The notes under the pieces: generated by a model
Database searches by the model: none
Told to the model about the DNA's origin: nothing
What the model saw: the letters and a program-made list of their open reading frames with translations, nothing else
Translations under genes and position numbers: made by a program
In this document: positions 7,903 to 64,000 of the stretch, one piece after another
Layout of the letters: every line of letters begins with the position of its first letter
Numbering within the stretch: the stretch's first letter is position 1
From: a virus
Taxonomy: Duplodnaviria; Caudoviricetes
Virus record (IMG/VR): IMGVR_UViG_2795386107_000001
Coordinates: 8,822 to 72,821 of that record
Direction: 5' to 3' (one strand)
Length of the DNA stretch: 64,000 nt

Positions 7903-7939
7903 GGGTCCTGCCCTTCATGCTGGGTTGCGTGTCGGGCGG

Positions 7940-7975
7940 ACTGTGCGCGGCGCCGGTGCCTTGCGTCGCGTGCTC
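7940..7975 (-). promoter_or_regulatory. Bipartite promoter-like motif (holin)
   Basis: GAGCACGCGACGCAAG with CACAGT starting 22 nt after the G of GAC. Confidence 0.7.
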
Positions 7976-7977
7976 GC

Positions 7978-21727: not shown

Positions 21728-21766
21728 GACGGGGTTCTCCAAGGTGTCCGGTGCTAGGGCGCGGAC

Positions 21767-29128: not shown

Positions 29129-29213
29129 TTCTGCTCTCTCCCTGATGCTGGGGTGCGGTTGACGTGCGTCGCTCCGCCCGGCCAGCACCGGGACAGCCTC
29201 AACGCGAGGCGGA

Positions 29214-41800: not shown

Positions 41801-44800
41801 CTCGGCCTTGGCGGCGACGAACCCGGCCTTCCAGCCGTCCATGGAGCCCTTGGTCCCGAAAATGTCGATCTCGACCTCGGGGTTCTGATTGCCGTAGCGC
41901 AGGATGCGGCCGTTGCGCTGCTCCATCTGCGCCGCGCCCCAGTCGAGGTCGACGTGCGTGAGGGAGATCATGCGGTCCTGGGCGTTCATGCCCGTGCCCG
42001 CGACGGCGCTGGAACCGATCAGGACCGAGATCTCACCTTCGCGGGCCTTGCGGAACAGCTCCGTCATGTCCTCGGGCTTGCCGGACTTCTTGGCGTCCTG
42101 GACAAAGGCGATCTTGTCGGCGGGGACGCCGCCGGTGACCATGAGCTGCTTGAGTTCGGCGTAGGCGTCGAAGCCGCCCTTGTTGTCGCTGTCCGGGACG
42201 CCTTCGTTCAGGAAGATCATCTGGAGGGCGCCGGGGACGGGGTGGTCCTCGTCGCTGCCGTAAGCGACCTTGTAGACGCGGTCCTTGGTGGCGTGGTACC
42301 GCTCGATGTGCCGGTCCGCGACGGCCTTGAGCTTGTTGCCCGCGGGGGCGTTGCCGTCGACGAGCCGCGGGTCCAGGGCCACGCTGGTGCCCTCGTTGGA
42401 CACCGTGAGCATGTTGTCGTCGACCAGGGCGCCCTTGCGGGTGCGGATCTGCTGAGGCTCACCGTTGTGGATGGCGCGGCCGCGGGCGACGAGCCCCTTG
42501 AGACGCTTCTTCTGGTCCGGGGTCGCGTCGACCAGGATCAGGTTGTGGGTGCCGCCCTTGAGCTTCGGCCGGGGAATGCCGACGTCGTCGGCCCGCTTGG
42601 TGTCCGCGACCAGGCCCCACATGGTCTTCATGGCGCGCTTGTTGTGGAACTCGGAGAAGCGCTCCACGACGCGCAGGCCAGACCCGTCGGGGGCGTTCTC
42701 GATACGCAGGGTCTTGCGGCCGAAGGTGTTGGCCCACAGGTCCGGGGCGCCCGCCTTGTAGGCGTCGAGCACCCACGGCGCCGCGAACTGGAGCATGGTG
42801 AACTGCTCGCTGATGCTGTTGGACAGCGGCGTGCCGGTGGCGAGCGTGATGGTGGCGCGGCCGCCGCGGCGGCGGTGCAGGTCGGTGGTCTTCTGGTGCA
42901 GGTCGACGCCGCGGATGGACGCGGGGTCGCCGCCGGCCTCCTTGGAGCGGAAGCCAACGCCCTTGTAGCGGTGAGCCTCGTCGACGACGAAGTAGTCGAA
43001 GCCGAGGTCGTCCCAGTACGTCTCGCCCGGCTTCCGCATGGGCGCGGCGTTCTTGTTGATGTTCCGCTGGACCGTCGCGATGCGCTGCTCGATCTTCGCG
43101 ACGATGAACGGGTGGTTGGGGTTGTCGGCGTCCTCGTACTGGCGGTCAAGCTGCTCGCGCAGCGACTCCAGCTCCCGGAACTCGTACTCCTCCTGAGCCT
43201 CCGGGCTCATCTTGATGGAGCCGAAGGCCTCTTCGGTGAAGATGACCAGGTCCGGCTTGTTGGCGCGCAGCCACTCCAGCGTGCTGGAGCGCCGGTCACC
43301 GGCCAGGTCTGCCGAGGTGATCAGGTGGATATCGGCGTTCGGGTACAGGTACCGCGCTTCGTCCGCCCACTGCTTCGCCAGGTGGTTGGGCACCACGGCC
43401 ATGGGCTTTTCGATCTGCCCGGACGCCTTGAGCGCCTGGGTGCCCATGACGAGCGTTGAGGTCTTGCCGAGGCCCACCTCGTGGGCGAGGATCACGCCCC
43501 GCTCGAACTGCATCCGGGCGGCGCCGGCGAGCTGCCAGGAGTGCGGGGTCCTGTCGGGCGTGAAGCCTTCCAGGGTGGGCGACATGCCCTCGTACGAACG
43601 GACGACGTGCCCGTTCATGATGCGGTTGTAGGACTCAGTGAGGGTCGTCAGTCGCTCGGCGTTCGCCGTGGCGTACTTGGCGAACTCGGCCCGCATCTGG
43701 TCGGCCTTCTGCCGGATCAGACGGGAGGTCGTCTCGTCGACGTCCTTGCGCTTGTCGTCGTGGTAGACGGTCAGCGATCCGAAGCCGAGGACCGCGCGGG
43801 CGATCTCTACGGCGGACTTGCCCTTGGTGCCCTTCTCCGGGTTGGCCGGGACGCCGTACATGACGTTGTTGGCCTCGGGCACACGGCCGGTGTTGAGAAT
43901 CCAGCCGTACCGGTCATCGTGCGCAACGCGCAGGGTCCGGTCGCCCAGGTACTCGCGCAGGAAGCCCTGCAGCAGCTCCGGAGGCGTCCAGTGTGCGCCC
44001 ATCTCGGGCGTGAACTGGCCGATGGTCCGCTCCGGCGGCTGTACCGCCTCCAGCGCGGCCACGTTGACCGCGTACGCCGGGTCCTTCTCCGCGGCCTTGC
44101 GGGCGGCGTCGAGCTTGTCGCGGACGGCACCGGACAGGTAGGCGCTGGCCAGATCGAGGCGGCCGGTGGCCGGGTTGGTGAAGACCTCGTTACCGAGGCG
44201 CTTCAGCGCCTCCTGCGGGTCGACGTCGAGGAGGCGCGCGACTTCCCCGAGGTCCACGTCGCCGTGCGCGGCGACGACCGCGGCCAGGGCCGCCTTCGGG
44301 TCGTCGGTCGACGTCAACTGACGCCGACGGGCCGCAGCGCGCTCGGTGAAGATGCGGGAGAGGACCGGCTCACCGGTCTTGGCGTCCCACCGCTCCAGGG
44401 CGAGGACAGCCGCGGCGTCCGGGTCGGCTCGGAAGTAACCCCACGCCGTCGGGCGGCCGTTCTTGGTGCGGTGCTGGCCGGGCTTGGACAGCGGCCCGTA
44501 CTGCTCGACGTAGGCGGCGTGCAGGTCGCGGAGCTGGGCGCGGAGGGCGTCGGCGCGCTCCTCCTCGTCGTTCTTGCGGTCCAGCTCGCGCAGTTCGGCG
44601 GCGACGTCGCGGAGCTGCATGAGGTCGCGGAGCTGGGCGGTGTTGCCGTCGGCCGGGTCGATGAGGACCGGCTCAGCGCCGTTGACGTGCTGGTAGAACT
44701 GGCCGTCGTCGCCCTCGTAGAGGCGGCCGGTCCAGTCGTTGGCGTGCTTCTCCCGGGCGGTCTGCAGGTGCACCGGGGGCCGGTCGTCGCCGTCGGGGTG

Positions 44801-47800
44801 CGGCTCGTAGCCGCGGCCGTCGGCCTTCGCCTTCTCAGCCATGTCCTCGAGCGCCTTGCGGAGCTGTTCGGCTGCCTTGGCCGGGTCGCCCTTAACGGTG
44901 ACCTCCGGCCCGTACGGGCCGGACTGGGTGGTCAGCGTGCCGAGGATGTGCTCGGGGTGCTCGTCGAAGTAGGCGTTGATGTGGTGCGGGGTGCCGTTGA
45001 GGTCCCGTTCGGGGGCGTCCAGCCATGAGGTGTCGGCCGGCTCGGTGCCGTCCTCACGGCGCCGGAACACGAGCACGTCGGTGGTGACCCCGGTGCCGGC
45101 GTCGTTGAAGACGCCGGAGGGCAGACGGATGGCGCCCACCAGGTCGCCGTACTTGGCCATCTGACGGCGGGCCTTGTCGCCCTTGGAGTCGAGCGTCTGC
45201 CGGGAGGTGATGACGGCCGTGATGCCGCCCGGACGGACGAGGGCGATCTCCTTGGTGACGAACCCGTTGTGCAGGCTCTCCGCCGGGTACCGCTTGTCAT
45301 CGAACGGGACGCGGGCGAACGGCACGTTGCCGATCGCCGCGTCAAAGGTCCCCGGCCGGGCGTCGCTCTCCGCGAAGGACTCGTTCAGGACGTTGGCGTG
45401 CGGGTAGATCGCCTGAGCGATCCGGGCCGTGGTCGGGTCGAGCTCCACACCGGTCAGGCGCGCACCGTCGGGGGCGACGCCGAAGAACGTGCCCGCGCCG
45501 GAACCGGCTTCGAGGACGTCGCCACGGTCGAACCCGAAGGCGCGCAGGCCATCCCACATCGCCTCGGCGATGGGCTGCGGCGTGTAGTGCATGGACAGCA
45601 CGCCGCGGGACGCCTGCCGGAACTCAACCGGCGTCAGAACGCGCTGCAGCTCGCTGCGGATGTCGCTGTACTCGGACCACCGCTCGTGGTCCTTGGCGAA
45701 CTTGCCGTACCGAGTGCCGCCCTGCTGGTAGCGCGGTTCCTTCTCGTTCGGCTCGCTGGCGAAGATGATCGGCACCGAGCCCCACCCGGACCAGCGGGCG
45801 AGGATGCGCTTCTCCTCGTCGGTGGCCGGCCGGTTCTCGGCCTCCAGCTTCTTGAGGACCTTGATGGCCTCGACGTTGGCGGCCGCACGCGCGCGTGCGC
45901 CCTTGGGCGCGTCGGCCGGGTCCGGCCGGAACCGCGCTACGCGTCGTACATCGCGTCCCTGATCTCCTGCAGGTGCTGCTCCATCGGCGTCTGCTCGGGC
46001 GCCTTCTCCGCGCCCTCCTCCGGCTCGGGCAGAAGCTCCCTCAGAACCATCGCCGTCGCGTCCGCCCTGATCTGCTTGAGCCGGCCGACCCTCTCGTCGT
46101 AGCCCTCCGGCTCCGGCACCGTCTCCTCCAGCGCCTGCTCCGCGACCAGAATCCGGCTCTCGATCTCCCTGGCCTTCGTCTCCACGAACGCCTCCGGATC
46201 GTCCATCGCCGCCCACTCCTGCGGCAGGTACGTCCGCCAGTGATCCCGGACCGTCGGACTGAACATGTTCATCGTCGTCGCCTCCCAGCGCTGCACGGAG
46301 CGCGGCCTGCTGTGCCTCGATCTCCTCGCGGGAGATGACCTTCTGGTCGTCGTTCCCGCCATTCTTGCGGACTGCCTCACGGGCTGACTCAATCGCGTGC
46401 AGTGCCACGTTGATGGAATTGAGTCGGGTCTTGGCCTTCGCCCGGTCCGACTTGTCCGCGTCGCGGTCCGCGGCCTGCACGGACATGTCCCGCGACAGTT
46501 CTTCCGTCACCCGGTGCAGCTCCGCGAGGAGACCCTCGGGAATGACCAAGTTCCGGCCCTTGATGTGGTGGCCCTTCTTGCTGCTGGGCACCAGCGGGTT
46601 CACGCCGTCGTCCCAGCCGTACCGGTCCCGGAACAGGTGGAAGAGGTACTGGCGTTCCTCGGATGCGTTGGAGAGCCGGTCGCCGAGGCGGGCCGTCTGG
46701 TACAGCTCGACGAACATCTTCGGGACGAACACGCGCCGCTCACGGCCCCAGGTGCGCTCACCTCGGGTGTCCGGGTCCTGGTCGTAGGCGCGGACCAGCG
46801 CGGCCAGGGCGGCGGCTCGCGAAGGGTACGCCGTGTTGCCGTGGCCCCAGGAGTTCTTGCCCCAGGTCCAGCCGATCTCTCGGCGGTCGCGCCCGTAGCC
46901 GAGGTTCTGGTTGTAGTCGATGTAGCCGTACCCGGCGCCGCCGTCGATGCTGATTTGCCCGTTGGAGTCGGGGTTGTCGACGCGGGCGAGGAGCTGTTCG
47001 ACCTCGGGGGTGGTGTCCCGGCGGTTCAGTTCGGCCTCGATGGCGGCCATGCGTGCCTCGCGGGCCGCCTTGACGTCGTCCGACTCGTAGTTCGAGCGGC
47101 CGCGGCGCAGCTCGGTGTACTCGTCGAGCAGCTTCTTGGAGTCGACGGCGTCGGGGGTGTCCCGGTCCGTGATGGCCCGCTTCTCCCGCTCGCGTCGCTC
47201 CTGCTTGATGTCCTCCAGGCGGCCCTCGAGGACCCGCTGAGCCTCCGGGGACGCCTTGCGGAAGTCCCGCTTGATGAGTTCGTTGTATTCCTCGGACAGG
47301 GCTTCGTCGTCGAGGTCAGCGACCGGCGGCCGGTCGGCGATCTGCTCGGCGCGGCGCCGCTGCTGCTCACCGACGATCGCGTCGTGCCGCTTCTGCAGGG
47401 CGGCGCGTACGGTCTGCTCGGCCTCGTGGTCGTCGCCGGCGGCCTGGTGCAGGGTGACCCGGTGGGCGACGGCGTCGCGGGCCTTGGCGAGGTCCTCCTC
47501 GGCCATCGTGGTCAGGTCGGTGTTCTCGTCGACCAAGGCCTGGGAGCGGCGGCGGCGCTCGCTGTAGATGGCGCGCTCGACGTCGTTCGCGGGCTCGCCC
47601 CTGCGGGAGCCGTACGTGCCGCGTTCCTGCTGCGACTCCTTGACGCGGGCCTCGATGTCGGCGTCGCTGAGCTGGGTGGCGTCGCGGGCCGCGGCTTCGT
47701 CCCGCTCCTTCCGCCGGCGCTTCTGCTCCTCGGTGATCAGGTCGATCTCGCTGTCGAGGCGCCGACGGTTGGCTTCGGAGCGGGAGGTGCGGTATTTCGT

Positions 47801-49957: not shown

Positions 49958-49964
49958 GCCGCGG

Positions 49965-50000
49965 ACCATGTAGAGCGCGGGTGCTTAGCGTCGCGGCCTC
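49965..50000 (-). promoter_or_regulatory. Bipartite promoter-like motif (giant gene, leaderless geometry)
   Basis: GAGGCCGCGACGCTAAG with CATGGT at the 22-nt offset; ATG 7 nt later. Confidence 0.7.
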
Positions 50001-52839: not shown

Positions 52840-55293
52840 TTACTCCTTCGGGTCGGTGACGTAGTGGAGGCGGCATCGGCAGTTGATCGTGAGGGCGATC
52901 GGTGCGAATGGGTCGCCGGGGTAACGGAGGCTGGAGCCGTCGACGGTGTACGGGGTGCCGACGGGGAGCGTCTTGCCGTTCAGCGCCTTGTGGGCGGGGC
53001 GTACGCGGTCGTCTCCGCGGGTGATCCAGGTTCGGACGACGCCGGGGCCGGCGTGTTCGGCGGCGGCGTCTGCTGCGCCGTTGATGGTCGAGATGGCGCA
53101 GGTCTCGGCGATCCGGGCGATCAGGGCGGGCTCTGCGGAGTGGTAATGGCTGACGACGGCGTGCTCCAGGTCGCCCACGTCCTTGGCGTCGTTCTGCGCG
53201 GCGGCGAGGGCGTCGGCCAGTTCGGTGAGGAACGCGGTCACGGCCTCGCCGGCGAACGCCGCGGTGACGATGGCGGCCGCGGCCGCGGAGGGGGGAACGT
53301 CGTCCGAGCCGGTGAGGGCCTGCCCCACCTTGCGGGCGGTGGCGATGGCTGCCTGTTGGAGGATCGGCGTCAGGGTCTGGGAGGTCTCCTCAGCCCAGCG
53401 GGCGGCGCTGACGACGCGGTTCTGGTCGAGGTCGGCGTCGACGTGCCGGACGTCGTTGTCGTTCTCCGGCTGCCAGTAGCGGGTGTACTTGCGGATCTTC
53501 GGTGCGCGGAGCCGGGCCAGGATGACGCCTTCCTGGCGCGCCAGGAGGGCGGTGACGGCGGCTGCCACGGCCATGGAGAGGGCGTCGAAGTCGTCGTCTG
53601 TGACCTCGAATCCGTCGTCCTGGGGGAGTGCCTTGCTCTCGATCGTGTCGCGGGCGGCGGCGACGTCCTCGGCGGCCTCGCCGGGCTGGGTCTGCTCTTG
53701 GGCGTTCCGGGCGCGGTCGACGTCGGCGGCCGCATCGCCCGGGGCGGTGGCGGTGTTCGTGGCGCGTGCTGAGGCGACGGCGTCCGCGGCGGTGCTGCCT
53801 GCGGGCAGTGCGAGGGGGGCCTGCGCTCGTGCTGCGGTGACGGCGGCCGCCGCGTCCTGGCCGGGATCGACGGCGCGCGCGGCTGCCACGTCCGCGGCCG
53901 CGGAGTCTTCCGGAGCGGCGCCCTGGGGGAGCGGGGCGCCGGTGGGCGCCGCGCCGGGCATTCCGCCGGCGGCCGGGTCGGGACCGAGGCCGAGAGCCGC
54001 GGCGTCCTGCGGGTTGGCGGGTATGGGGGCCTTCTGCGGGCTGATCCACAGGGCGCGGGACTGCGGGACGTTGAAGGCTTCCCGGCCTGCGATCTCCCGG
54101 TACTCGTCGATGGTGATGAGGCCCTTGTCGAACTCCTCCCGGGCTTCTTGCCGGGCCTGGCGGCGGGGGAACTCGAGGGCCTGGACGCGGGAGGTGTCGT
54201 ACCGGACGGTCCAGCCGTCGTCCAGCTCAGGGTCGAACCCGGAGGCCACCAGGTTGAGGTGGGGCAGTTCGGTGTGGTCCCAGAAGTTCCACTCTTCCCG
54301 GTCCGCGTTGGCGTAGGTGCGCTCGGAGGCGTTGCCGACGATGCTCTCGGGCACGCCGAAGGCGGCCAGGATCTCGCCCTTGGAGATGCCGGCCAGCGTC
54401 TCGTACGCCATCTCGCGCGGCCGGGCGGAGGTGTCGACGTATGTGACACCGCCGGGGCCGGTGCCGACGAGGGTGAGCTGCCCGGCGTTGTGCGCGCCGG
54501 GGGCCAGGCGCTTCTGGATGCGGTCGACTTCGCGCGGGTCGACGCCGTCCAGGTCGATACCGACAATTCCGCCCGGTCTGCCGTCATTGTCAATAAATGA
54601 GATGTTGTATGTGCGCGCCTTGACGTCGAGGTCGACGGACAGGCCCGCGGCCTCAAGCGGGGTGACACCGCAGAACGGATCGGTGGGGTGGGGGTCCCTG
54701 ATCCAGATGACGTGTTTCGGCTTCAGCTCCCGGACCTGACCGGCGTAGTTGGTGAACTCGAAGTGCTTGACGTAGTCGCCGTTCTCGTCGTCCGGGATGA
54801 TCTGGACGCGGTCTGGTGGCAGCAGATCGAGCCGGGTGAGGGTGCCGCCCCGTGAGTAGGTCTTCTCGATGAACACGCCCTTCTTCGACAGAAGGAGCTG
54901 CGCGCTCAGCCGCTTCTTGAAGACGTCGGCGGTCTCCAAGGGGTTGGACTTCTTGTTCAGCAGGCGAAGAAGCGGGTGGTCGTCGAGGGTCTCCTCGAAG
55001 CGCCGCTCGTCGCCTCCCCGGCCTATTTGGATCGGTAGGGTACTGGCGTGCTTGCTGATCGCCTCGATGGACTTGAAGGTCCAGATGCTGCGTTCGTAGC
55101 CCTCGATGATGACGCGCTCGAGGTCCCAGCCGTCCGCGCGGCCTGGTGTCCCCCAGACGTTCGTGACGCCGGCGTACGTCATCGACACGTACGCGTTGCC
55201 CGCGAGGAGATCCTTTGTCTCCGTGGGCGGCGGGGGTGCGGCGGTCCGGGGGACAAGGAGGCCGCGGAGTGCGGGGAAGAGTTGGCGGGGCAT
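52840..55293 (-). CDS. Portal protein fused to C-terminal MuF (head morphogenesis) domain
   Basis: HPLLRLLN..NP, LLPPDRV, GVTPLEAA, NDGRPGG, ILAAFGVPES, GLITIDEYRE; Ala-rich linker; C-terminal WITRGDDRVRPAH..YPGDP..INCRC. Confidence 0.92.
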   Translation of the reverse strand: MPRQLFPALRGLLVPRTAAPPPPTETKDLLAGNAYVSMTYAGVTNVWGTPGRADGWDLERVIIEGYERSIWTFKSIEAISKHASTLPIQIGRGGDERRFEETLDDHPLLRLLNKKSNPLETADVFKKRLSAQLLLSKKGVFIEKTYSRGGTLTRLDLLPPDRVQIIPDDENGDYVKHFEFTNYAGQVRELKPKHVIWIRDPHPTDPFCGVTPLEAAGLSVDLDVKARTYNISFIDNDGRPGGIVGIDLDGVDPREVDRIQKRLAPGAHNAGQLTLVGTGPGGVTYVDTSARPREMAYETLAGISKGEILAAFGVPESIVGNASERTYANADREEWNFWDHTELPHLNLVASGFDPELDDGWTVRYDTSRVQALEFPRRQARQEAREEFDKGLITIDEYREIAGREAFNVPQSRALWISPQKAPIPANPQDAAALGLGPDPAAGGMPGAAPTGAPLPQGAAPEDSAAADVAAARAVDPGQDAAAAVTAARAQAPLALPAGSTAADAVASARATNTATAPGDAAADVDRARNAQEQTQPGEAAEDVAAARDTIESKALPQDDGFEVTDDDFDALSMAVAAAVTALLARQEGVILARLRAPKIRKYTRYWQPENDNDVRHVDADLDQNRVVSAARWAEETSQTLTPILQQAAIATARKVGQALTGSDDVPPSAAAAAIVTAAFAGEAVTAFLTELADALAAAQNDAKDVGDLEHAVVSHYHSAEPALIARIAETCAISTINGAADAAAEHAGPGVVRTWITRGDDRVRPAHKALNGKTLPVGTPYTVDGSSLRYPGDPFAPIALTINCRCRLHYVTDPKE

Positions 55294-56236: not shown

Positions 56237-56493
56237 CGTTCCTCCGGAGCGCGCTGCGGGGTTGACGTAAAGCGCAACCCCCTTCACAGCCAAAACGTCA
56301 ACGACCGTGATCTGTTACACATGACCCGTTTGGGGCAACTCACCGGAGTGGATCAACACCTTTGCGTGATCTTCGAAGGTCACAGATGTGATCGTTTCCG
56401 ACGCGCCAGAAGGCCGTGTGAAGCGCCCAGATCTGATCTTCTGAGAGGGATAGGGTGGGGCATTCCACGATCCATCTCGGAGGTGCCCGCCCG

Positions 56494-59400
56494 GTGGCCG
56501 ACAGCTTTGTTCACCTGCACAATCACACCGAATACTCGATGCTCGACGGCGCGCAGAAGCTCAAGCCGATGTTCGCTGAGGTCGACCGGCAGGGCATGCC
56601 AGCGGTGGCGATGTCCGACCACGGCAACATGTTCGGTGCGTACGAGTTCCATCAGGTGTCCAAGGGCTTCGACAGGGTCAAGCCGATCATCGGGATTGAG
56701 GCGTACGTCGCCCCATCTTCGCGCCGCAATCGCAAGCAGGAGTTCTGGGGGCCGGGCGGGCAGCGCGCCATGTCGGACGACGGCGAGGGCTCGAAGGACG
56801 TCTCCGGCGGAGGCCGCTTCACCCACATGACCATGTGGGCCCAGAACGTCCAGGGCCTCAAGAACCTGTTCTACCTGTCCACCGAGGCCAGCTACACCGG
56901 GCAGTTCCCCGCCGGTAAGCCGCGCATGGATATGGAGCTGATCAGCGAGCACGCTGAGGGCATCATCGCGACGACGGGATGCCCCTCCGGCGCGATCCAG
57001 ACCCGGCTGCGCCTGAACCAGTACGACGAGGCACTCAAGGTCGCCGGCGCTTACCAGGACATCTTCGGCCGGGAGAACTACTTCCTGGAACTGATGGACC
57101 ACGGCCTGTCCATCGAGCGCGACGTCCGAGACGGACTGCTGCGCCTGGCCAAGCAACTGGCCATCCCGCTCCTGGCCACCAACGACGCGCACTACATCCA
57201 CGAGGACCAGGCGGACGCGCACGACAACCTGCTGTGCATCGGCGTCGGCAAGAACAAGGCCGACGAGAAGCGGTTCAGGTTCCAGGGCAGCGGCTACTAC
57301 CTGAAGACCGCGCAGGAGATGCGTGCCCTGTTCTCCGAGCTGCCCGAGGCGTGCGACAACACGCTGCTGATCGCGGAGCGGATCGAGTCGTATGACTCGG
57401 TCTTCGAGAACGTCGACGAGATGCCGCAGTTCCCCGACGTGCCGGAGGGGGAAACGCAGGAGTCCTGGCTGCGCAAGGAGTGCCTGAAGGGCCTCGCCAT
57501 GCGCTACGGGGACCCGATCCCCGCCGAGGTCATGGAACGCTTCGAGACCGAGATGTCGGTCATCGGCCCCATGGGCTTCTCCAGCTACTTCCTCGTGGTC
57601 GCGGACATCTGCAAGTACGCGCGGGACAACGGTGTGCCGGTCGGACCTGGCCGTGGTTCGGCTACCGGCTCGATCGTCGCCTACGCGACCCGCATCACTG
57701 AACTGTGCCCGCTCGAGCACGGCCTCCTCTTCGAGCGATTCCTGAACCCGGAGCGCATCAACCCTCCGGATGTCGACCTCGACTTCGACGACCGCCAGCG
57801 CGACAAAATGGTGCGCTACGTCACCGAGAAGTACGGCGACGAGTACACCGCCATGGTGAACACGTTCGGCAAGATCAAGGCCAAGAACGCGATCAAGGAC
57901 AGCTCGCGCATCCTCGGCTACCCCTTCAGCCATGGTGAGCGGATCACCAAGGCGCTGCCGCCGGACATCATGGGCAAGTCCATCCCGTTGGATGGCATCT
58001 TCGACCCGCAGCATCCTCGGTATGGCGAGGCCGCCGAGATCCGGACGATGTATGAGAACGAGCCGGACGTCAAGAAGGTCATCGACACCGCCAAGGGCGT
58101 CGAGGGCCTGACCCGAGGCACTGGTGTCCACGCGGCTGCGGTCATCCTGTCCAAGACCCGACTGACCGAACGTATCCCGCTGCACATGCGTGCGGCCGAC
58201 GGCGTGAAGATCACCGGCTTCGACTACCCCAGTTGCGAAAACATGGGGCTGGTCAAGATGGACTTCCTCGGGCTGCGGAACCTGGGTGTGATCGACCACG
58301 CCATCCAAAACATCCGCGAGAACCGCGGCGTCAAACTCGCCTGTGTTGACCCGATGGACGGCGACACCGAGACAGTTGTCATCCCCCTCGATGACAAGAA
58401 GACGTTCGAGCTTCTTGGCCGGGGCGACACTTTCGGTGTGTTCCAGCTCGACGGCGGCGGCATGCGCGCCTTGCTCAAGCTCATGGAGCCGAGCCGATTC
58501 GAGGACATCGCGGCCGCCCTCGCCCTGTACCGGCCCGGCCCGATGGCCGCCAACGCACACACCAACTACGCGCTGCGGCAGAACGGCAAGCAGGACCCCG
58601 ACCCCATCCACCCCGAGCTCAAGGAAGTCCTCGACCCGATCCTCGGGTCTACTCACCATCTGCTCATCTTCCAAGAGCAGATCATGGCGATCGCCCGGAC
58701 TCTCGCGGGGTACACGCTCGGCGGCGCCGACATGCTGCGCCGCGCGATGGGCAAGAAGAAGCCCGAGGTCCTGGCCGCGGAATGGGACAAATTCCACGGC
58801 GGCATGAAGGACAATGGCTACTCAGAGGAGGCCATCAAGGCCATCTGGGACGTCATGCTCCCGTTCTCCGGGTACGCCTTCAACAAGTCCCACACTGCCG
58901 GCTACGGCCTGGTCTCCTACTGGACCGCCTACCTGAAGGCGAACTACCCGGCCGAGTACATGGCCGCACTGCTGACGTCCGTCGGAGACGACAAGGACAA
59001 GGCCGGCGTCTACCTGGCCGACGCCCGCAAATTGGGCGTGACCGTTCTACCGCCCGACGTCAACGAGTCCGTCGCGGAGTTCGCGGCCATCGGCGACGAC
59101 GTGCGCTTCGGCCTCCGATCGGTGCGCAACGTCGGCGACAACGTCATCGAAGCGATCATCGCGGCCCGTAAGTCCCAGGGGAAGTTCACCTCGTTCGCCG
59201 ACTTCCTGGACAAGGTCGAGTTGCCCGCGCTCAATAAGAGGGCCGTCGAATCGCTCATCAAGGCCGGCGCCTTCGACTCCCTCGGCCACACACGCAAGGG
59301 GCTGACGGCCGCTCACGAAGCAGCCATCGATGCGGTTGTGCCGCTGAAGAAGGCCGCCGCATACGGGCAGGACGACTTGTTCGCAGGGATGGGCAGCGAC

Positions 59401-60093
59401 AGCAGCGACGAAGGGGCCGGGTTCGGCCTCGACGTGCCTATCGGCGAGAGCGAATGGCCGCGTAAGCAGCTCCTCTCCACTGAGCGGGAGATGCTCGGGA
59501 TGTACGTCTCGGCGCACCCTCTGGACGGCACTGAACACATCCTGGCCGCTAACCGGGACACCACCATTCCCGATCTGCTGGCTTCAGGCCGCACGGAGGG
59601 CATGGTCCGTCTGTCCGGGCTGATCACCAGTGTCCAGCCGAAGATGACCAAGCAGGGCAACGCGTGGGCCATCGTCAATTTGGCCGACCGTGACGGCACC
59701 ATAGAGGTCCTGTTCTTCCCGGCCTCCTACCAGCTCGTCATGGGCGCGCTCGTCGAGGACGCCGTGGTATCGGTCTTTGGCAGGCTCAACGATCGTGACG
59801 GCACCATCAGCATCTTCGGCCAGGAGTTGCAGGTCCTGGACGTCACAGCCGCCGAGCGCAACGGTGCGGCGCCTGTCCAGCTCGCTCTTCCCTACCACCG
59901 CATCAACGAGCCCACGGTGAAGGAACTCAAACGGATCATGGGAGCTCACCCAGGGGAGAACCCCGTGCGTCTGACGGTGCGTGGCCCGCAGAAGACGACC
60001 ATCTTCCAGCTTCAGGCCATGGTGAACGCGGCAACTATCGCGTCCGACATCAAGGGTTCCTTCGGCGCGGAGGCTTGGCAGGGCGTGGCGTGA
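56494..60093 (+). CDS. dnaE: DNA polymerase III alpha subunit
   Basis: PHP FVHLHNHTEYSMLDG, SDHGN, TNDAHY; GPGRGSA; catalytic PDVDLDF and KMDFLGL; YAFNKSH; C-terminal OB fold; GTG after GGAGG. Confidence 0.97.
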   Translation: MADSFVHLHNHTEYSMLDGAQKLKPMFAEVDRQGMPAVAMSDHGNMFGAYEFHQVSKGFDRVKPIIGIEAYVAPSSRRNRKQEFWGPGGQRAMSDDGEGSKDVSGGGRFTHMTMWAQNVQGLKNLFYLSTEASYTGQFPAGKPRMDMELISEHAEGIIATTGCPSGAIQTRLRLNQYDEALKVAGAYQDIFGRENYFLELMDHGLSIERDVRDGLLRLAKQLAIPLLATNDAHYIHEDQADAHDNLLCIGVGKNKADEKRFRFQGSGYYLKTAQEMRALFSELPEACDNTLLIAERIESYDSVFENVDEMPQFPDVPEGETQESWLRKECLKGLAMRYGDPIPAEVMERFETEMSVIGPMGFSSYFLVVADICKYARDNGVPVGPGRGSATGSIVAYATRITELCPLEHGLLFERFLNPERINPPDVDLDFDDRQRDKMVRYVTEKYGDEYTAMVNTFGKIKAKNAIKDSSRILGYPFSHGERITKALPPDIMGKSIPLDGIFDPQHPRYGEAAEIRTMYENEPDVKKVIDTAKGVEGLTRGTGVHAAAVILSKTRLTERIPLHMRAADGVKITGFDYPSCENMGLVKMDFLGLRNLGVIDHAIQNIRENRGVKLACVDPMDGDTETVVIPLDDKKTFELLGRGDTFGVFQLDGGGMRALLKLMEPSRFEDIAAALALYRPGPMAANAHTNYALRQNGKQDPDPIHPELKEVLDPILGSTHHLLIFQEQIMAIARTLAGYTLGGADMLRRAMGKKKPEVLAAEWDKFHGGMKDNGYSEEAIKAIWDVMLPFSGYAFNKSHTAGYGLVSYWTAYLKANYPAEYMAALLTSVGDDKDKAGVYLADARKLGVTVLPPDVNESVAEFAAIGDDVRFGLRSVRNVGDNVIEAIIAARKSQGKFTSFADFLDKVELPALNKRAVESLIKAGAFDSLGHTRKGLTAAHEAAIDAVVPLKKAAAYGQDDLFAGMGSDSSDEGAGFGLDVPIGESEWPRKQLLSTEREMLGMYVSAHPLDGTEHILAANRDTTIPDLLASGRTEGMVRLSGLITSVQPKMTKQGNAWAIVNLADRDGTIEVLFFPASYQLVMGALVEDAVVSVFGRLNDRDGTISIFGQELQVLDVTAAERNGAAPVQLALPYHRINEPTVKELKRIMGAHPGENPVRLTVRGPQKTTIFQLQAMVNAATIASDIKGSFGAEAWQGVA

Positions 60094-60449
60094 GAGGCGA
60101 GCAGAGCAATGAGGAGACAATCCTCCTCAAGGTCGAAGACACGCCGCCTTGCCCGCAGTGCGACGGCCCCACGCTGCTCCTCGCACGGTTTCCCCATGCC
60201 TGGAAGAACGGCCTTGGGCGGGACGTCTCGGGCCTCAGAGAAACGGTGCTGTGTCAGGGCTGCCATCACGGGGACCCAGCCGCGGCCGAGCTGCTCGCGC
60301 TGTACGCCGTCGACGGCCACGTGAACCCGGAGAACCTGGACGTCTTCGGCGGGCTTGTCGCCGCCTGGGTCGAGTCCGTACGGCAGCGCAAGGTCGACGA
60401 AGGCGCGCTGAACGCCGAGTTCGAGCTGTGGAAACGAGGCGAGTTGTAG
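60090..60449 (+). CDS. DUF6300-like zinc-ribbon protein
   Basis: CPQC..ARFPHAWKN..VLCQGC; GTGA overlap with the dnaE stop. Confidence 0.7.
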   Translation: MRGEQSNEETILLKVEDTPPCPQCDGPTLLLARFPHAWKNGLGRDVSGLRETVLCQGCHHGDPAAAELLALYAVDGHVNPENLDVFGGLVAAWVESVRQRKVDEGALNAEFELWKRGEL

Positions 60450-60465
60450 CCCCTTTGGAGCGCTA

Positions 60466-60504
60466 GAAGGGGCCCGGTCTGCTTTTGAGCAGCCGGGCCC
60501 CTTC
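60466..60504. terminator. Bidirectional terminator-like hairpin between convergent genes
   Basis: gaaggggcccgg-t-ctgct-tttg-agcag-ccgggccccttc long stem with one bulge. Confidence 0.8.
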
Positions 60505-60516
60505 AGTCTTGGGCGT

Positions 60517-62055
60517 TTAGGTCAGGGCATGGTGCAGGCGGAGCACATGGGCCACCATCGAGTCCTGTTGTGTGGGTGGTTGGCGTTCCAGTCGTAGGGC
60601 GACAGCCGCCAGCTCGTCTGCGTCGATGAACTTGCCATCGATCAGCGGTGAGCCCGATTCCAGCATGGTGCGGATTGCGGCCGGACCGAATCGGGAGAGG
60701 GCCCGGTGCAACACGTCGTGGAAGTTCTCCCGCAGCGGCGGGTGGGTCACCTCCGCATCGAAGCCGAGGCGTTGGAGGCGCACCCTGGCCAGGTGCTTCT
60801 TCCGACGCCAGGAGAAAGGTAGCCACTGCCCGAAGCGCCACATCACGGGATCGGCGAGCGGGTACAGCGGCCACACTCCGGCCCGCAGGTACATGGGCGC
60901 ACCGCAGACGAGAGCGCGGAGTGTGGAGTCGGAGATCGGGGGTGCAGGGGGTATGCCGCTCTCCTGGTCCCGTAGGGCCTCGAACGTGTTGGGTGTGAGC
61001 CAGCAGGGGACTTCTGAGGGCGTCAGCGGCGGTTTTGGTTCCGGCGGCAGGCTCAGCATTTCGTCCCCGCCCACCCCGGCCGCGGCCCAGAGCACGCCGT
61101 CTGCCTTCCACTTGGCCAGCAGTCGACTGTGCCCAGCAATGTAGATCTCCTCGTGGGGTCCCAACTGCACGCGCGGGGCGTGCCGCGGGTCCAGCGGCAG
61201 GTAGTCGGCGGCACGCAGCACGGTGTCCCGGAAGCCGGCATAGCGGATCATCGCCTCCCGGCGCCGCTTCTGCTGTTCCCCGGCAGCACCTTGCTGGATC
61301 AGCGCGCCGCTGAAGATGACGGGCCCGTGGCGGGTGGCCAACGACATGGCCACATTGCTGCTGTCCATCCCTCCGGACAACTCGACCGCGGTCCGCTCGG
61401 GTAGGTAGTGGTGGTCTGCCAGTACGGCGTCGAGGAGTCGTTCGTAGCCGTCGAGGACCCTTGCGTCCGGGGCGAGTTCGCGGGGCTCATCGTGGCGAGC
61501 AGGCTCAGGCATCCGCACCCGGAGTTCCCCATCGTGGAACGAGGCGCTGGAGCGTTCAGTGAGCAGGGATATGCCCTGCCACGCGGTGCGGGTGCTGTAG
61601 TGGCCGGTCAGGGCCAACAGCCGGGCGATCTCGATGGGGTCAAGATGCTGGTTGGGCATCGCGCTGCGCAAGCGCGTCACGTCCCAGTGCCCGTGCAGGA
61701 TGCCGTGATTCGCTGTCAAGTAGACAGGAGCCGGAGCGTGCGCACCGGTGCTGACTGTGATCCCGTTCAGGGTGATCTCGATGAGATGGTGTGCTCGCGC
61801 CCATGAAGTCGCCTCATTGAACGCTTCGTTGTAGGCCCGCTGGCTCAACGGCCTTGGTGAGCCCGGTGAGTGGGGCGGTCGTCCGGGAGCGCGCTCACGT
61901 ACCTGGAAGACAACACGCTGGCTGTCCCGAGCCGACCAGGTTTCCAGCGCTGGATGATCATAGGGGGAGATCCAGGAGGAGCCACTGCGCCAGCGGTCAC
62001 CGGCCCACTCCCATGACGTGCTGATCGACGCGGTATCGAACCGCATACTCAGCAT
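60517..62055 (-). CDS. Asparagine-synthetase-like adenylating enzyme (lasso-cyclase / macrolactam synthetase related)
   Basis: PP-loop ELSGGMDSS, GVGGDEML, YPLADP, RKKHLAR; no N-terminal Cys glutaminase motif; RBS AAGGAG. Confidence 0.85.
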   Translation of the reverse strand: MLSMRFDTASISTSWEWAGDRWRSGSSWISPYDHPALETWSARDSQRVVFQVRERAPGRPPHSPGSPRPLSQRAYNEAFNEATSWARAHHLIEITLNGITVSTGAHAPAPVYLTANHGILHGHWDVTRLRSAMPNQHLDPIEIARLLALTGHYSTRTAWQGISLLTERSSASFHDGELRVRMPEPARHDEPRELAPDARVLDGYERLLDAVLADHHYLPERTAVELSGGMDSSNVAMSLATRHGPVIFSGALIQQGAAGEQQKRRREAMIRYAGFRDTVLRAADYLPLDPRHAPRVQLGPHEEIYIAGHSRLLAKWKADGVLWAAAGVGGDEMLSLPPEPKPPLTPSEVPCWLTPNTFEALRDQESGIPPAPPISDSTLRALVCGAPMYLRAGVWPLYPLADPVMWRFGQWLPFSWRRKKHLARVRLQRLGFDAEVTHPPLRENFHDVLHRALSRFGPAAIRTMLESGSPLIDGKFIDADELAAVALRLERQPPTQQDSMVAHVLRLHHALT

Positions 62056-62082
62056 CAGCCGCTCCTTAGTTCGGAGACTGGG

Positions 62083-62111
62083 ACGGGGCCCCTCACAAGG
62101 AGGGGCCCCGT
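62083..62111 (-). terminator. Stem-loop after short peptide gene 2
   Basis: acggggcccct-cacaagg-aggggccccgt perfect 11-bp stem. Confidence 0.7.
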
Positions 62112-62124
62112 TGAGGACAGAGGG

Positions 62125-62259
62125 TCAGTCGTCCTCGTTGACGCGCTGGTCACCCTGGCCCGAGGGCTTGCGGTGCCGGGCCTCGGGGGTCGGCGCCGTG
62201 GTGCGCGCCGAGGTGGTGAACATTTCCTCCAGGTCGCGGAGCGCCGATTCGGCGTTCAT
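62125..62259 (-). CDS. 44-aa peptide, candidate RiPP precursor 2
   Basis: MNAESALRDLEEMFTTSARTTAPTPEARHRKPSGQGDQRVNEDD; RBS AAGGAGG; below the ORF-track cutoff. Confidence 0.7.
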   Translation of the reverse strand: MNAESALRDLEEMFTTSARTTAPTPEARHRKPSGQGDQRVNEDD

Positions 62260-62422
62260 CGCATTCCTCCTTGAACGAGTCGATCCGTGAACGTGCTGAC
62301 GACGGTTCCTACCCTGTGCAGTGCTGGGATCAGTCCTCGTCGTCGTTGATGTGCGAGCTGATGCTGATGGCGCAGCACCAGATTGGTGCGACCCATGGTC
62401 ATGCGGGCGCGCTCACTCAGTG

Positions 62423-62457
62423 GGTGGGGCGGGGACCACCGACGATCCCTGCCCCAC
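62423..62457 (-). terminator. Stem-loop after short peptide gene 1
   Basis: gtggggc-ggggac..atccct-gccccac imperfect long stem. Confidence 0.55.
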
Positions 62458-62478
62458 GTTCAGTGCGGTTCGGAGCGG

Positions 62479-62691
62479 TCAGGCCGCGACGGTGGGCGTC
62501 GACGGCTTCAGGGTCACGGTGGTGTCCGGGCGCAGCGCCTGGTTGTTCTGGACGGCGCCGCAGTTGTTCGCGCCGGTGCCGACCAGGCCGCCGGCCGCGA
62601 GCTCGGTCCACTCCTCGACGTCTGCCGCGGTCACGCCCATGCCGGGCGCGTCCAGGGCGAGGCTCTTCGACTCGACGATGGTGTCGCTCAT
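62479..62691 (-). CDS. 70-aa peptide, candidate RiPP precursor 1
   Basis: MSDTIVESKSLALDAPGMGVTAADVEEWTELAAGGLVGTGANNCGAVQNNQALRPDTTVTLKPSTPTVAA; RBS AAGGAG. Confidence 0.7.
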   Translation of the reverse strand: MSDTIVESKSLALDAPGMGVTAADVEEWTELAAGGLVGTGANNCGAVQNNQALRPDTTVTLKPSTPTVAA

Positions 62692-62726
62692 GCGGGATCT
62701 CCTTGTTGTGCGACGGGATACAGATG

Positions 62727-63335
62727 TCAGGCGGTCTTGCTTGCGACCGCCACCACGACGGCTTGGCCGTCTTCCACTGGCCGGACCGTGCTGGTCAGCC
62801 AGCCCGGTCCGACCGCCAGCAGCCCGGGGGAGGGACGGAAGGTGACTTCCCTTCCCCAGGGCAGACCGGGCATCGCGGTTCCCTCGCTCCCCGCGCGGGG
62901 GTCGAGGAGAGCCACGGACCCGGAGTCTTCGTGCTTCGGCTGGGTGGCGTGCAGGAAGCACCAGCCGAAGAGATCGGAGGATGAGGCGTATTGGGGAATC
63001 TCGAAGCCGCGGCGCCAGACCTGGACGGTCATCTTGATCGTGCCGTCCGGGCGCCTCGCCTCGGTCAGCCTCATCTCGTCGGTGGCTGCGTAGCTCGGCA
63101 CACCGCCCTGAAGTCCGTGCTCCTGCTCCAACTCGTCCATCGCGGAGCTGAATTCGGCGCGCAGGGTGTCTGGGTCTGTCAGCGCGGTTTCCAGGGGCAG
63201 GAACTCCTGCTGCGGGCCTTCGAGGGGGATGTCGAAGAGGCGGATGATCGTCGCCAGGTCGATCCTGCGTACGCCGCAGGCGGTCTCCCACAGGCGGGTG
63301 ACGGTCTTCTCGCCCGGCTTCAGCATCGTGCTCAT
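62727..63335 (-). CDS. 2OG-Fe(II) oxygenase-fold protein lacking the metal ligands
   Basis: Parallels its neighbour (LLDPR, PxPGLL, PGWL) but the His positions read QYA and LTS; ATGA-coupled. Confidence 0.7.
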   Translation of the reverse strand: MSTMLKPGEKTVTRLWETACGVRRIDLATIIRLFDIPLEGPQQEFLPLETALTDPDTLRAEFSSAMDELEQEHGLQGGVPSYAATDEMRLTEARRPDGTIKMTVQVWRRGFEIPQYASSSDLFGWCFLHATQPKHEDSGSVALLDPRAGSEGTAMPGLPWGREVTFRPSPGLLAVGPGWLTSTVRPVEDGQAVVVAVASKTA

Positions 63336-64000
63336 GAAAGGGCCTCCGATGTGTCGAACGCGGCGTTCCAGGCGATGCAGATGCGTGTCCCTCCGTCGTG
63401 GAGCGTGGCCTGCACGCTGTGCGGGAGCCAGGAGGGGAAGCCGACGAGGAGCCCGGGCTGGGGCTGCACGGAGTACACCCCAGGTGAACCATGGCGGGCG
63501 ACGGCGGCCGGCCGCGGGTCAAGGAGTTGGAGGTGCCCGGCGTCTGGGCCCACGCCGCCGGTCTCGATGTAGTAGGTGCCGGAGAACACCGAGTCGTGGT
63601 GCGTGTGCTGCCGGTGGCTGCCGCCCTCGTGGTAGACGACGGCCCAGCCTTCGGCACGGATCGCGGACTTCTCGAATACTCGCGCTGCCAGATCTTCCTT
63701 GTCGGACAGGGCATCGAGGGTGAGGTCGCGGATCGCGTCAAGGATGCGTTCGCGCAGCCAGTCGACGGCCGGGTGGTCCCAGCGCAGGATGTCGAGGCTG
63801 GACTTCTGCGCCCCGATGACGCCGAACTGGTACTCCGGTTGCTTCGATTCGGCCTCGAGGATCAGGGTCCGGAGCTGGGAGTTCATCTCCTGGACCGTCT
63901 CGAGGCCGAGCCCCGGGCTGTCCATCGCGGTCAGGTCGGCCTGGTAGAAGCCGGTCGGCCAGGCCGTGAAGGTGGTCGAATGGGTTCGCGTCGTCGTCAT
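63332..64000 (-). CDS. TIGR02466-like 2OG-Fe(II) oxygenase
   Basis: WAVVY..HRQHTH..FSGTYY..LLDPR..FPSWLPHSV..RICIAWN; ATG lies at the window edge so the start cannot be confirmed. Confidence 0.88.
   Translation of the reverse strand: MTTTRTHSTTFTAWPTGFYQADLTAMDSPGLGLETVQEMNSQLRTLILEAESKQPEYQFGVIGAQKSSLDILRWDHPAVDWLRERILDAIRDLTLDALSDKEDLAARVFEKSAIRAEGWAVVYHEGGSHRQHTHHDSVFSGTYYIETGGVGPDAGHLQLLDPRPAAVARHGSPGVYSVQPQPGLLVGFPSWLPHSVQATLHDGGTRICIAWNAAFDTSEALS

Follow-up and report, generated by a model that had tools for sequence, protein, structure and literature searches.

Enzymes of the asparagine synthetase (AS) superfamily are a fast-growing source of peptide chemistry, including lasso rings, C-terminal amides, nitriles and hydrazides. 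Their PP-loop domain adenylates a carboxylate, which is then attacked by an amine, and to our knowledge the superfamily members which lack the glutaminase cysteine (beta-lactam synthetase, carbapenam synthetase and the lasso cyclases) all form intramolecular amides. In lasso systems a precursor (A) and an AS-like cyclase (C) are accompanied by a RiPP (ribosomally synthesised and post-translationally modified peptide) recognition element (RRE, B1) as well as by a transglutaminase-like peptidase (B2), and known lasso rings contain 7 to 9 residues. The available part of a 2026 preprint on fosfazinomycin states that many AS-like clusters which are unrelated to lasso peptides are uncharacterised. 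Here we describe such an enzyme, and a second peptide-modification system beside it, in a window of 64,000 nucleotides (the whole stretch of DNA that was analysed), which is the last 64 kb of the 72.8-kb IMG/VR record IMGVR_UViG_2795386107_000001, classed as a provirus by its source; the record ends at base 64000 of the window. A sequence-only reading of this stretch had proposed that five minus-strand open reading frames (ORFs) form a single undescribed RiPP system. All five ORFs are present, and we found that they make up two independent cassettes lying head to tail: cassette A, with a 44-residue peptide (pep44) and an AS-like enzyme, and cassette B, with an oxygenase, a paralogue of it without metal ligands and a 70-residue peptide (pep70). 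Both are undescribed, conserved and of RiPP type, and are built from known kinds of enzyme. We put the probability of the whole explanation, two independent side-by-side peptide-modification cassettes working by the mechanisms proposed below, at roughly 0.55. That the system was undescribed agrees with the literature which we searched, where neither cassette was found; the PF00733 similarity-network file of the fosfazinomycin preprint may list the cassette A family, and asparagine synthase is not mentioned in the accessible portion of the decRiPPter paper (PMC7794033).

The two cassettes are separated by their distribution. A word-based search retrieved 32 relatives of the AS-like enzyme, nearly all named "hypothetical protein", and when their alignment was used to scan one genome per species, 79 cassette A loci were obtained, in Streptomyces, Nocardiopsis, Saccharothrix, Actinokineospora, Lentzea, Actinomadura, Pseudonocardia, Nocardia, Frankia, Promicromonospora and one metagenome-assembled genome of the Acidobacteriaceae. 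The oxygenase genes were absent from 78 of these 79 loci: tblastn found the oxygenase, its paralogue and pep70 only in one Streptomyces genome (L005), and pep44 and the enzyme occurred without oxygenase genes in three further Streptomyces genomes (L002–L004) and in all 74 more distant genome loci. A metagenome scan with an alignment of the paralogue gave 27 cassette B loci, none of which contained the AS-like gene, nor did the two enlarged cassette B loci described below (L085 and L086); it should be noted that 14 of the cassette B loci, including these two, have at least 1.5 kb of sequence downstream of the peptide gene. These distributions show separate cassettes rather than the single five-gene system which had been proposed. 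In such an integrated system the oxygenase pair would hydroxylate both peptides and the AS-like enzyme would then amidate or cyclise them. Both the window and L005 have the five genes side by side and in one direction, close relatives seem, by indirect evidence given below, to have both cassettes on one contig, and in the nitrilobacillin cluster, which contains a pseudo-enzyme, the AS-like enzyme requires prior hydroxylation of Asp, according to the available part of the report (10.64898/2026.03.11.711119). Against this stand the counts above, the fact that each cassette has its own peptide, ribosome binding site (RBS) and downstream hairpin, and the spacer of about 220 nucleotides between the pep70 stop and the pep44 start, and we regard a single integrated system as very improbable.

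The cassette A enzyme (512 residues; 60517–62055, minus strand) is an asparagine-synthetase-like, beta-lactam-synthetase-like PP-loop ATP pyrophosphatase and a putative peptide macrolactam synthetase. It has both the SGGxDS PP-loop and the AsnB-like two-domain fold of the AS superfamily. The PP-loop, SGGMDSS, occupies residues 227–233, and G229, D231 and S232 are invariant among 45 family sequences. The protein starts MLSMR, with no Cys following the Met, so that the glutaminase Cys is missing as had been read from the sequence, and all 17 aligned members start with MLS, MLK, MIK or MFS rather than Met-Cys. In an AlphaFold2 model built from 45 sequences (predicted local distance difference test, pLDDT, 93.4; predicted template modelling score, pTM, 0.92), the N-domain (residues 1–190) is well folded, and it is conserved. 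The enzyme is a dead glutaminase-type N-domain joined to an intact PP-loop domain. The best Foldseek match was beta-lactam synthetase (E = 1e-14), followed by TsnB9, AsnB, carbapenam synthetase and human ASNS, with E values from 1e-14 to 7e-11 for 1mc1, 1jgt, 7ylz, 1ct9 and 1q15, and beta-lactam synthetase was also at the top of a profile search of PDB sequences (E = 6.6e-7). The beta-lactam and carbapenam synthetases (1jgt, 1mc1 and 1q15) are thus the best solved matches, resembling the cassette A enzyme in their PP-loop, in their vestigial N-terminal nucleophile (Ntn)-type domain without Cys and in the putative reaction, ATP-dependent acyl-adenylation followed by intramolecular amide formation; unlike it, they act on small molecules and not on a ribosomal peptide, and identity is only 12–14%.

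Family databases barely recognise the enzyme. The Pfam family Asn_synthase (PF00733) matched it at E = 0.04 and matched its relatives at 24–29 bits or not at all, and these weak scores may explain how the family has escaped PF00733-based surveys and annotation pipelines. The NCBIfam model for lasso-type macrolactam cyclases (NF033561) scored 30 bits against a cut-off of 300 (E = 2e-7). The family is large: a profile search of 1.84 billion representatives at 50% identity returned 493 proteins at the E ≤ 1e-30 threshold, a number which rises to 855 at E ≤ 1e-10, and an ESM Atlas look-up returned only "asparagine synthase-related" clusters. We constructed a maximum-likelihood tree in which 20 family A members were placed together with proteins from the same genomes, namely two lasso cyclases of the canonical kind, five AS proteins with the Cys and one short AS-like protein of 430 residues. 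Family A was monophyletic (support 100/99) on a long stem, the Cys-bearing AS proteins formed a separate clade, and the join between family A and the lasso cyclases was supported at only 52/43. A bona fide lasso cyclase, located beside a PF13471 gene in genome G003, scored 31 bits with the family A profile, vs 650–720 for members.

Directly upstream of the enzyme gene lies pep44 (62125–62259, minus strand). Its RBS is of AGGAGG type and that of pep70 is AAGGAG, consistent with the strong sites which had been remarked on for both peptide genes. The peptide has a leader-like part with F14, followed by K31-P-S-G34-Q-G-D37 and then D43. By tblastn it was found directly upstream of the enzyme in all four other Streptomyces genomes (L002–L005) at 72–79% identity, and a small co-directional ORF occurs nearly everywhere in the 450 nucleotides upstream of the enzyme loci. 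ORFs of the pep44 type were present in 70 of 80 loci (the 79 genome loci and the window), with the stop codon 18–190 nucleotides before the enzyme gene and K-x2-G-x2-D situated 13–17 residues from the C-terminal end. A hidden Markov model (HMM) made from 45 peptides matched in 71 of 80 loci, counted here as the 79 genome loci and a second paralogous locus (L117); seven of the nine HMM-negative loci contain only a C-terminal enzyme fragment or lie at a contig start (L062, L066, L070, L073, L075, L076 and L079). In the 45-row peptide alignment K31, G34 and D37 are invariant, and F14 and D43 are conserved in at least 90% of rows although they lie outside the motif used for selection. The C-terminal residue (D, E, I, V, T, R, M, P or S) and the length of the tail vary, with 1–6 residues beyond Asp43, and Asp37 is followed by a variable residue, often a bulky one (Q, T or V). 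No Pfam or NCBIfam family covers pep44, and database copies of peptides of its family are unnamed and without a Pfam family.

Two further peptide loci were observed. L117 (G001:C65, 1477–3439) encodes a second AS-like paralogue of 490 residues with its own upstream peptide, ending K-M-P-G-G-G-D-N-N-G-D-H-C-S-K like the "GDHC" subgroup of Pseudonocardia; as it lies in the same genome as L005, two types of cassette A can coexist in one genome. At L020 a second peptide-like ORF (12601–12756; HMM E = 2e-5) is located about 1 kb downstream of the enzyme gene.

A G+C-rich hairpin of 12 bp (62083–62111, minus strand) lies in the spacer between pep44 and the enzyme gene, where it could be an attenuator, a terminator or a stabiliser of the mRNA 3' end. 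Its predicted energy is -32.7 kcal/mol (z = -3.9), and none of 200 shuffled sequences was equally stable. Most relatives have a long hairpin in the same place, with z < -2 in 40 of 69 intergenic regions (median z = -2.37), and it is absent from the Nocardiopsis group, where spacers are 42–46 nucleotides long. The suggestion that a stem-loop follows both peptide genes thus holds well for pep44 and only weakly for pep70, where the hairpin was no better than shuffled sequence (z = -1.25, 26 of 200 equally stable). The spacer of about 220 nucleotides upstream of pep44 (62260–62478, minus strand) appears to be conserved with L003, in which the translation of a spurious ORF reads alike, and may contain a promoter or regulatory element of pep44. 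A simple scan of the minus strand from 60400 to 64000 gave no sigma-70-like promoter and no T-tailed terminator, a result which carries no information in an actinobacterium of high G+C content.

In its way of working cassette A resembles the lasso cyclase systems, to which it does not belong. As in lasso systems, the gene of a two-domain AS-superfamily enzyme without the Cys stands immediately behind a small precursor gene, the A and C genes are separated by a hairpin, and in pep44 a conserved Asp follows a conserved amine-bearing residue by six positions, which is the span of a 7-residue lasso ring. Unlike lasso systems, it has no B1 or B2 gene nearby, nor anywhere in two host genomes; the amine is that of an internal Lys side chain and not of a freed N-terminus; the tail is very short; and the enzymes form their own clade (100/99), at 30 bits for NF033561, a tenth of the cut-off. 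When the lasso precursor pattern (Thr at -2, a small residue at 1 and Asp or Glu at 7–9) is compared with pep44, which has no assignable cleavage site, Asp37 comes 7 residues from Lys31, position 1 would be Lys, and a conserved Thr before it is absent. The earlier observation that no lasso B peptidase or RRE was in view held up: neither PF13471 nor PF05402 was found near cassette A. PF13471 is missing from G001 and G002, searched as whole genomes, and its two matches in G003 lie at 6.16 and 8.32 Mb, with the cassette A gene at 3.14 Mb. PF05402 had no match near the gene in four genomes and none at all in G002; its matches in G001, G003 and G404 are either on a different contig or separated from the gene by 0.6 Mb or more. 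Within the cassette A enzyme itself no RRE domain was found by Pfam scans. Peptidases, RREs, ATP-grasp ligases and exporters are not among the conserved neighbours, and neighbour families other than the acetyltransferase described below occur in at most 11 of the 79 loci.

We propose that the AS-like enzyme would bind the N-terminal D/E-x-hydrophobic-Phe motif of pep44 directly and adenylate the side-chain carboxylate of Asp37, which the epsilon-amine of Lys31 would then attack, giving a 7-residue side-chain-to-side-chain macrolactam (-18 Da). As the nucleophile would be internal, a leader peptidase and an RRE would be unnecessary, and the leader may remain attached. We favour this ring because the peptides have one conserved amine (Lys31) and conserved carboxylates at Asp37 and Asp43, and because there is no protease to free an N-terminus; judged from these sequence patterns, a Lys31-Asp37 macrolactam with retained leader is our tentative preference, at a little under even odds. 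The putative product, a Lys-to-Asp/Glu side-chain macrolactam in a leader-bearing ribosomal peptide, resembles those of the graspetides (microviridin type). Those are made by ATP-grasp enzymes through an acyl-phosphate, whereas a PP-loop enzyme would use an acyl-adenylate, and no ATP-grasp gene is conserved near cassette A.

A lasso or lariat product with a head-to-side-chain ring would instead need an unlinked housekeeping protease to free the N-terminus at Gly34 or Lys31, after which the alpha-amine would be joined to Asp43 (a ring of 8–10 residues) or Asp37 (a ring of 7 residues). The nearest curated family by sequence, NF033561 (E = 2e-7), is of the lasso type, Gly34 is invariant, Asp43 is present in at least 90% of rows and mostly lies 10 residues after Gly34, and the lasso peptide triculamin is made with only A, C and an acetyltransferase, as set out in the accessible part of its report (PMC12070363). 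These points are opposed by the lack of any protease conserved nearby and by the genome-wide absence of the lasso B peptidase in two of the three cassette-bearing genomes searched. Triculamin is leaderless, whereas an N-terminal part of about 30 residues with the Phe motif precedes the pep44 motif, and the 1–6 residues after Asp43 are too few for threading. A 10-residue ring would fall outside the 7–9 residues of known lasso peptides, and K-P, the sequence at positions 31–32, is a poor protease site. We consider a ring of this type unlikely. The Gly1-Glu9 ring which had been suggested from the sequence alone finds no support, since position 42 has no conserved acid, the conserved residues being K31, G34, D37 and D43, and no protease was found which would free Gly34.

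The cassette might also carry out no Lys cyclisation at all, and Asp37, Asp43 or the C-terminus would then be amidated with ammonia or another amine, or Asp37 converted to aspartimide or isoaspartate. AS-superfamily enzymes outside the lasso group do act on ribosomal peptides: TsrC, ScdTA, PesC (nitrilobacillins) and FzmA (fosfazinomycins) amidate, nitrilate or hydrazidate carboxylates, as described in the parts available of two preprints (10.64898/2026.03.11.711119 and 10.64898/2026.09.23.753898). Two Lys-less upstream peptides (L033 and L051) still adjoin a member of the cassette A family, and beta-lactam synthetase, the best solved match, closes its ring on a nearby backbone-type nitrogen. 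As far as the available text of these sources goes, however, the four enzymes take their nitrogen from glutamine or a related source and modify a C-terminal residue which is conserved, and FzmA-type enzymes carry or accompany RREs; the cassette A enzyme does not, and it lacks the glutaminase nucleophile which would supply ammonia. The variable C-terminal residue and tail of pep44 speak against a reaction at the C-terminus, the bulky and variable residue after Asp37 disfavours an imide, and Lys31 is kept even where the acetyltransferase is missing. Amidation or aspartimide formation therefore seems to us quite unlikely, and we return to the Lys31-Asp37 macrolactam as the working model.

Clustering of neighbouring ORFs gave a single conserved extra partner of cassette A, a GNAT acetyltransferase of about 175 residues (PF00583, with no NCBIfam family) encoded immediately after the enzyme gene. 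By tblastn it was present, on either strand, in 59 of 69 evaluable loci, and was absent from the window, L002–L005, L009, L021, L023, L036, L063 and L068. As the clade of the window is nested among GNAT-bearing clades, its missing GNAT represents a loss. An extra Lys in the core was found in 56 of 59 GNAT-positive loci vs 2 of 10 GNAT-negative loci; it mostly stands directly before the invariant Lys, where GNAT-negative loci usually have Arg. Lys31 itself is retained even in GNAT-less clades. In most relatives the adjacent GNAT probably acetylates this second, free Lys, by analogy with self-protection in triculamin and albusnodin, so its role is probably self-protective; the invariant Lys, consumed in the ring, would need no acetylation, and the clade of the window would have lost both the GNAT and the extra Lys.

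Triculamin invites the closest comparison for this arrangement. The accessible part of its report (PMC12070363) describes clusters of triA, triC, triT and triD in Actinomycetota in which TriT acetylates the ring lysines and thereby abolishes activity, a proven resistance mechanism which is also needed for production; by their own account given there, its authors came across no non-canonical lasso clusters besides triculamin-like ones. Cassette A shares with these clusters a precursor, an AS-like cyclase and an N-acetyltransferase without B1 or B2, as well as the host phylum, a core Lys with a G-x-x-D or PGDG-like motif around the ring Asp, and a protective (in cassette A, putatively protective) acetyltransferase. 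As far as that text shows, it differs in that the triculamin precursor is leaderless with a follower, whereas in cassette A the conserved part is N-terminal and the motif lies at the C-terminal end; that TriC lacks the N-terminal 150–250 residues, whereas the N-domain of the cassette A enzyme is full and conserved; that the triculamin core is strongly cationic and that of pep44 acidic; and that TriT has 296 residues, whereas the cassette A GNAT has about 175 and is absent from the window. Streptomyces triculaminicus itself has a cassette A locus (L057), and the family A profile found no second relative in its genome at E ≤ 0.001. We rejected the identification of cassette A as a triculamin cluster, though L057 belongs to the triculamin producer. 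We tentatively propose, at somewhat less than even odds, that cassette A represents a new class of ribosomal peptide, made by a stand-alone, deep-branching AS-like cyclase which would recognise the leader and form an internal Lys-Asp ring with the leader kept; the short Tyr/Asp-bearing tail is possibly held in or against the ring.

The cassette B gene at the edge of the window encodes an Fe(II)/2-oxoglutarate-type oxygenase of 222 residues (63332–64000, minus strand), and the window's final three bases are its start codon. It scored 65.8 bits for PF13759 (cut-off 27) and 57.2 bits for TIGR02466, just below the cut-off of 62.5, so that its earlier description as TIGR02466-like is apt. The stop of this gene overlaps by 4 nucleotides the gene of the paralogue (202 residues; 62727–63335, minus strand), which is a probable non-catalytic partner. 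When five pairs of oxygenase and paralogue were aligned, H-x-D and the distal His of WL.H were seen to be retained in the oxygenases, and the paralogues have lost H-x-D in all five pairs and the distal His in four, confirming the reported loss of ligands. The paralogue has no Pfam or NCBIfam match, and its family is small (25 clusters, all "hypothetical"; present in 3 of 401 sampled Streptomyces genomes). The stretch DPRAGS..TAMPGLPWGR is invariant in 17 paralogue sequences, which indicates that the paralogue is under selection, and together with the 4-nucleotide gene overlap it points to a functional partner of the oxygenase.

The third gene encodes pep70 (62479–62691, minus strand), which belongs to a family of peptides of 68–70 residues without a Pfam or NCBIfam entry. 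In the 27 metagenome loci the oxygenase lies directly upstream of the paralogue in 23, the other four having no upstream sequence, and a gene for a 68–70-residue peptide lies about 100 nucleotides downstream of the paralogue in 23, the other four contigs ending there. With the 70–71 of 80 loci for pep44, this bears out the expectation that precursor-type peptides are kept beside the modifying enzymes. The family consensus, S-L-R-L-x-G-P-G-L-G ... G-L-I-V ... Q-D-N-F-A-L-R-A-E-T-T-V-x-L, is conserved over nearly the whole length, including the motif Q-x-N-x-A-L-R-x-x-T-x-V-x-L; G17, G35, Q48, L53 and L61 are invariant and variation is limited to the last 3–9 residues. The "GG" which had been marked in pep70 is not a conserved double-glycine site, as only the second Gly (G35) is invariant. 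An AlphaFold2 model had a pLDDT of 58, with one helix (22–33) and the remainder unstructured, a low-confidence prediction of the sort expected of an unstructured precursor.

The operon of the window almost certainly continues past base 64000, as had been predicted, with a methyltransferase-like gene and an aKG-HExxH hydroxylase gene, judging from L005, which shows the full order: methyltransferase-like gene, aKG-HExxH hydroxylase (7409–8110), oxygenase (84% identical to that of the window), paralogue and pep70, followed by pep44 and the AS-like gene. The peptidase and transporter genes which had been sought beyond the edge are not there in L005. Of the 27 metagenome loci, 12 have an HExxH gene and 10 have one for a methyltransferase-like protein. 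In L085 and L086, which are two further Streptomyces genomes, the oxygenase/paralogue pair is accompanied by an HExxH hydroxylase, a YcaO protein and methyltransferases, and by a divergently transcribed protein of 105–109 residues whose first 70 residues align with pep70; the HExxH protein of L085 matched TIGR04267 (peptide beta-hydroxylase) at 56.7 bits (cut-off 40). In these enlarged relatives (L085, 7058–14143; L086, 9655–14908) the methyltransferases are of two kinds, the oxygenase/paralogue pair is present once or twice and the peptide has a C-terminal extension of 40 residues, and their YcaO proteins are of the thioamidation type by NCBIfam, below the cut-off.

From this gene content, the oxygenase, probably as a heterodimer with the non-catalytic paralogue, would oxidise (most likely hydroxylate) pep70 in the Q-x-N-x-A-L-R segment, and the products of the HExxH and methyltransferase genes would hydroxylate it further and methylate it. 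The product of cassette B is thus probably a peptide which has been hydroxylated and probably also methylated; where and how it would be oxidised is predicted from sequence conservation, and hydroxylation of Asn or Asp is a reasonable guess for pep70 only. The described clusters which come closest are those with aKG-HExxH hydroxylases (TIGR04267), as in full cassette B (L005, 12 metagenome loci, L085 and L086) the hydroxylase lies directly upstream of the oxygenase. They differ from cassette B in its constant core, a PF13759/TIGR02466 oxygenase, a dead paralogue and a 68–70-residue peptide, a combination which was not found in the literature searched. In the nitrilobacillin cluster, as far as its report is accessible, an AS-like enzyme occurs together with an aKG-HExxH hydroxylase and a pseudo-enzyme without metal ligands.

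We consider it likely that the two peptides are the substrates of the enzymes beside them. They could alternatively be regulatory or structural small proteins, or mis-called ORFs, with the AS-like enzyme acting on a small molecule: neither cassette is accompanied by an exporter or protease, the pep70 family is conserved over its whole length, unlike typical hypervariable cores, and the database names are all "hypothetical protein". We give this reading hardly any credence, as the adjacency and co-orientation of peptide and enzyme in cassette A are strict across genera at 31–41% enzyme identity, conservation is concentrated in a short motif which offers an amine and a carboxylate, RBS and hairpin have the arrangement seen in precursor genes, pep70 is predicted to be unstructured, and its HExxH partner is from a peptide hydroxylase family.

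A number of observations weigh against the explanation as a whole. Close relatives of the window repeatedly carry both cassettes, namely L005 and proteins on contigs of 5702 and 6835 bases, where the sharing of a contig is deduced solely from the contigs being of equal size, and there may be cross-talk between the cassettes, or a single pathway, in the window's own clade. For cassette A, the invariance of K31, G34 and D37 is partly circular, as the ORFs had been picked by that motif; D43 is nearly as conserved as D37, which makes the ring partner uncertain; and an adenylated Asp could give an aspartimide or amide instead of a ring. The peptide is absent from seven loci which have only C-terminal enzyme fragments, and the upstream peptides of L033 and L051 keep the Phe motif and have no Lys at the aligned place, so that Lys cannot be the nucleophile throughout the family. 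The association of GNAT and the extra Lys rests on few independent lineages (about five without GNAT), and has exceptions in both directions: L022, L025 and L027 are GNAT-positive with a single core Lys, and L009 and L068 are GNAT-negative with two. For cassette B, the conservation of pep70 throughout except in the last 3–9 residues makes the assignment of a core uncertain, its conserved Cys is absent from L085 and L086, and L091 and L093 have no HExxH or methyltransferase match in more than 3 kb upstream. The two loci without the invariant Lys (L033, 9561–9935; L051, 9564–9994) form a divergent sub-clade of cassette A with an extra conserved upstream region of about 77 residues, which L051 encodes as a separate frame and L033 as a fusion with the peptide.

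Both cassettes belong to the host Streptomyces chromosome and not to the prophage which occupies window bases 1 to about 56300, where portal, capsid, prohead protease and tail tube genes were recognised. Between prophage and cassettes lies dnaE (56455–60093, plus strand), its end overlapped by a DUF6300 gene (60075–60449, plus strand; PF19817, E = 6e-33), which is a conserved chromosomal anchor. The order of peptide, AS-like gene, DUF6300 and dnaE is common to the four other Streptomyces genomes (L002–L005), and phage genes are absent at that locus in two of them; it is because the order is kept, also without phage genes, that we assign the cassettes to the chromosome. The cassettes were also considered as phage cargo, and this was rejected, as both lie beyond dnaE and outside the prophage. 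The dnaE/DUF6300 pair is adjoined by cassette A in L002–L005 and L068, and by cassette B in 5 of the 27 metagenome loci and in L086, which suggests that this neighbourhood is a shared variable spot rather than that the two cassettes share a function.

DUF6300, which contains Cys-x2-Cys pairs, adjoins dnaE even in distant actinobacteria whose dnaE is 50–60% identical, and was located at 19434–19817 in L086, 5697–6023 in L087, 1179–1475 in L088 and 10771–11073 in L097. The DUF6300-dnaE neighbourhood may be a variable hot spot, or may have a functional link to replication. Within the prophage, which borders dnaE, we found the portal gene at 52840–55293, a capsid protein at 27836–29188, the tail tube at 21137–21742, a prohead protease fused to a NUDIX domain at 29354–31549 and a poly-gamma-glutamate hydrolase at 23412–24047, with IstB-like and DUF2637 proteins close to the left end; a related element is apparently found at the same place in L005. 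An open frame of 5717 codons (32816–49969, minus strand) has a SNF2/ResIII helicase-like stretch at about residues 2156–2336, within its N-terminal 3000 residues, and no other Pfam match.

As a candidate for a missing class of AS-like systems, cassette A is concrete, large and cleanly defined: it is made up of two or three genes, its precursor is short, and an amine and a carboxylate form an invariant pair. If it does represent a new class, it would use a "lasso logic" without a leader peptidase or RRE, in a family at the edge of PF00733 which genome mining by family would largely miss, and most members would make products bioactive enough to need a Lys-acetylating GNAT; the link to GNAT hints at antibiotic activity. 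A Lys-Asp ring, if true, would be a peptidase-free route to constrained peptides which would be useful for engineering. Cassette B offers the first substrate candidate, within the literature searched, for the PF13759/TIGR02466 oxygenases, whose function is unknown, and is another case of an active enzyme paired with a dead paralogue. Taken together, they indicate that what looks like one "cluster" at a variable chromosomal spot can consist of two systems.

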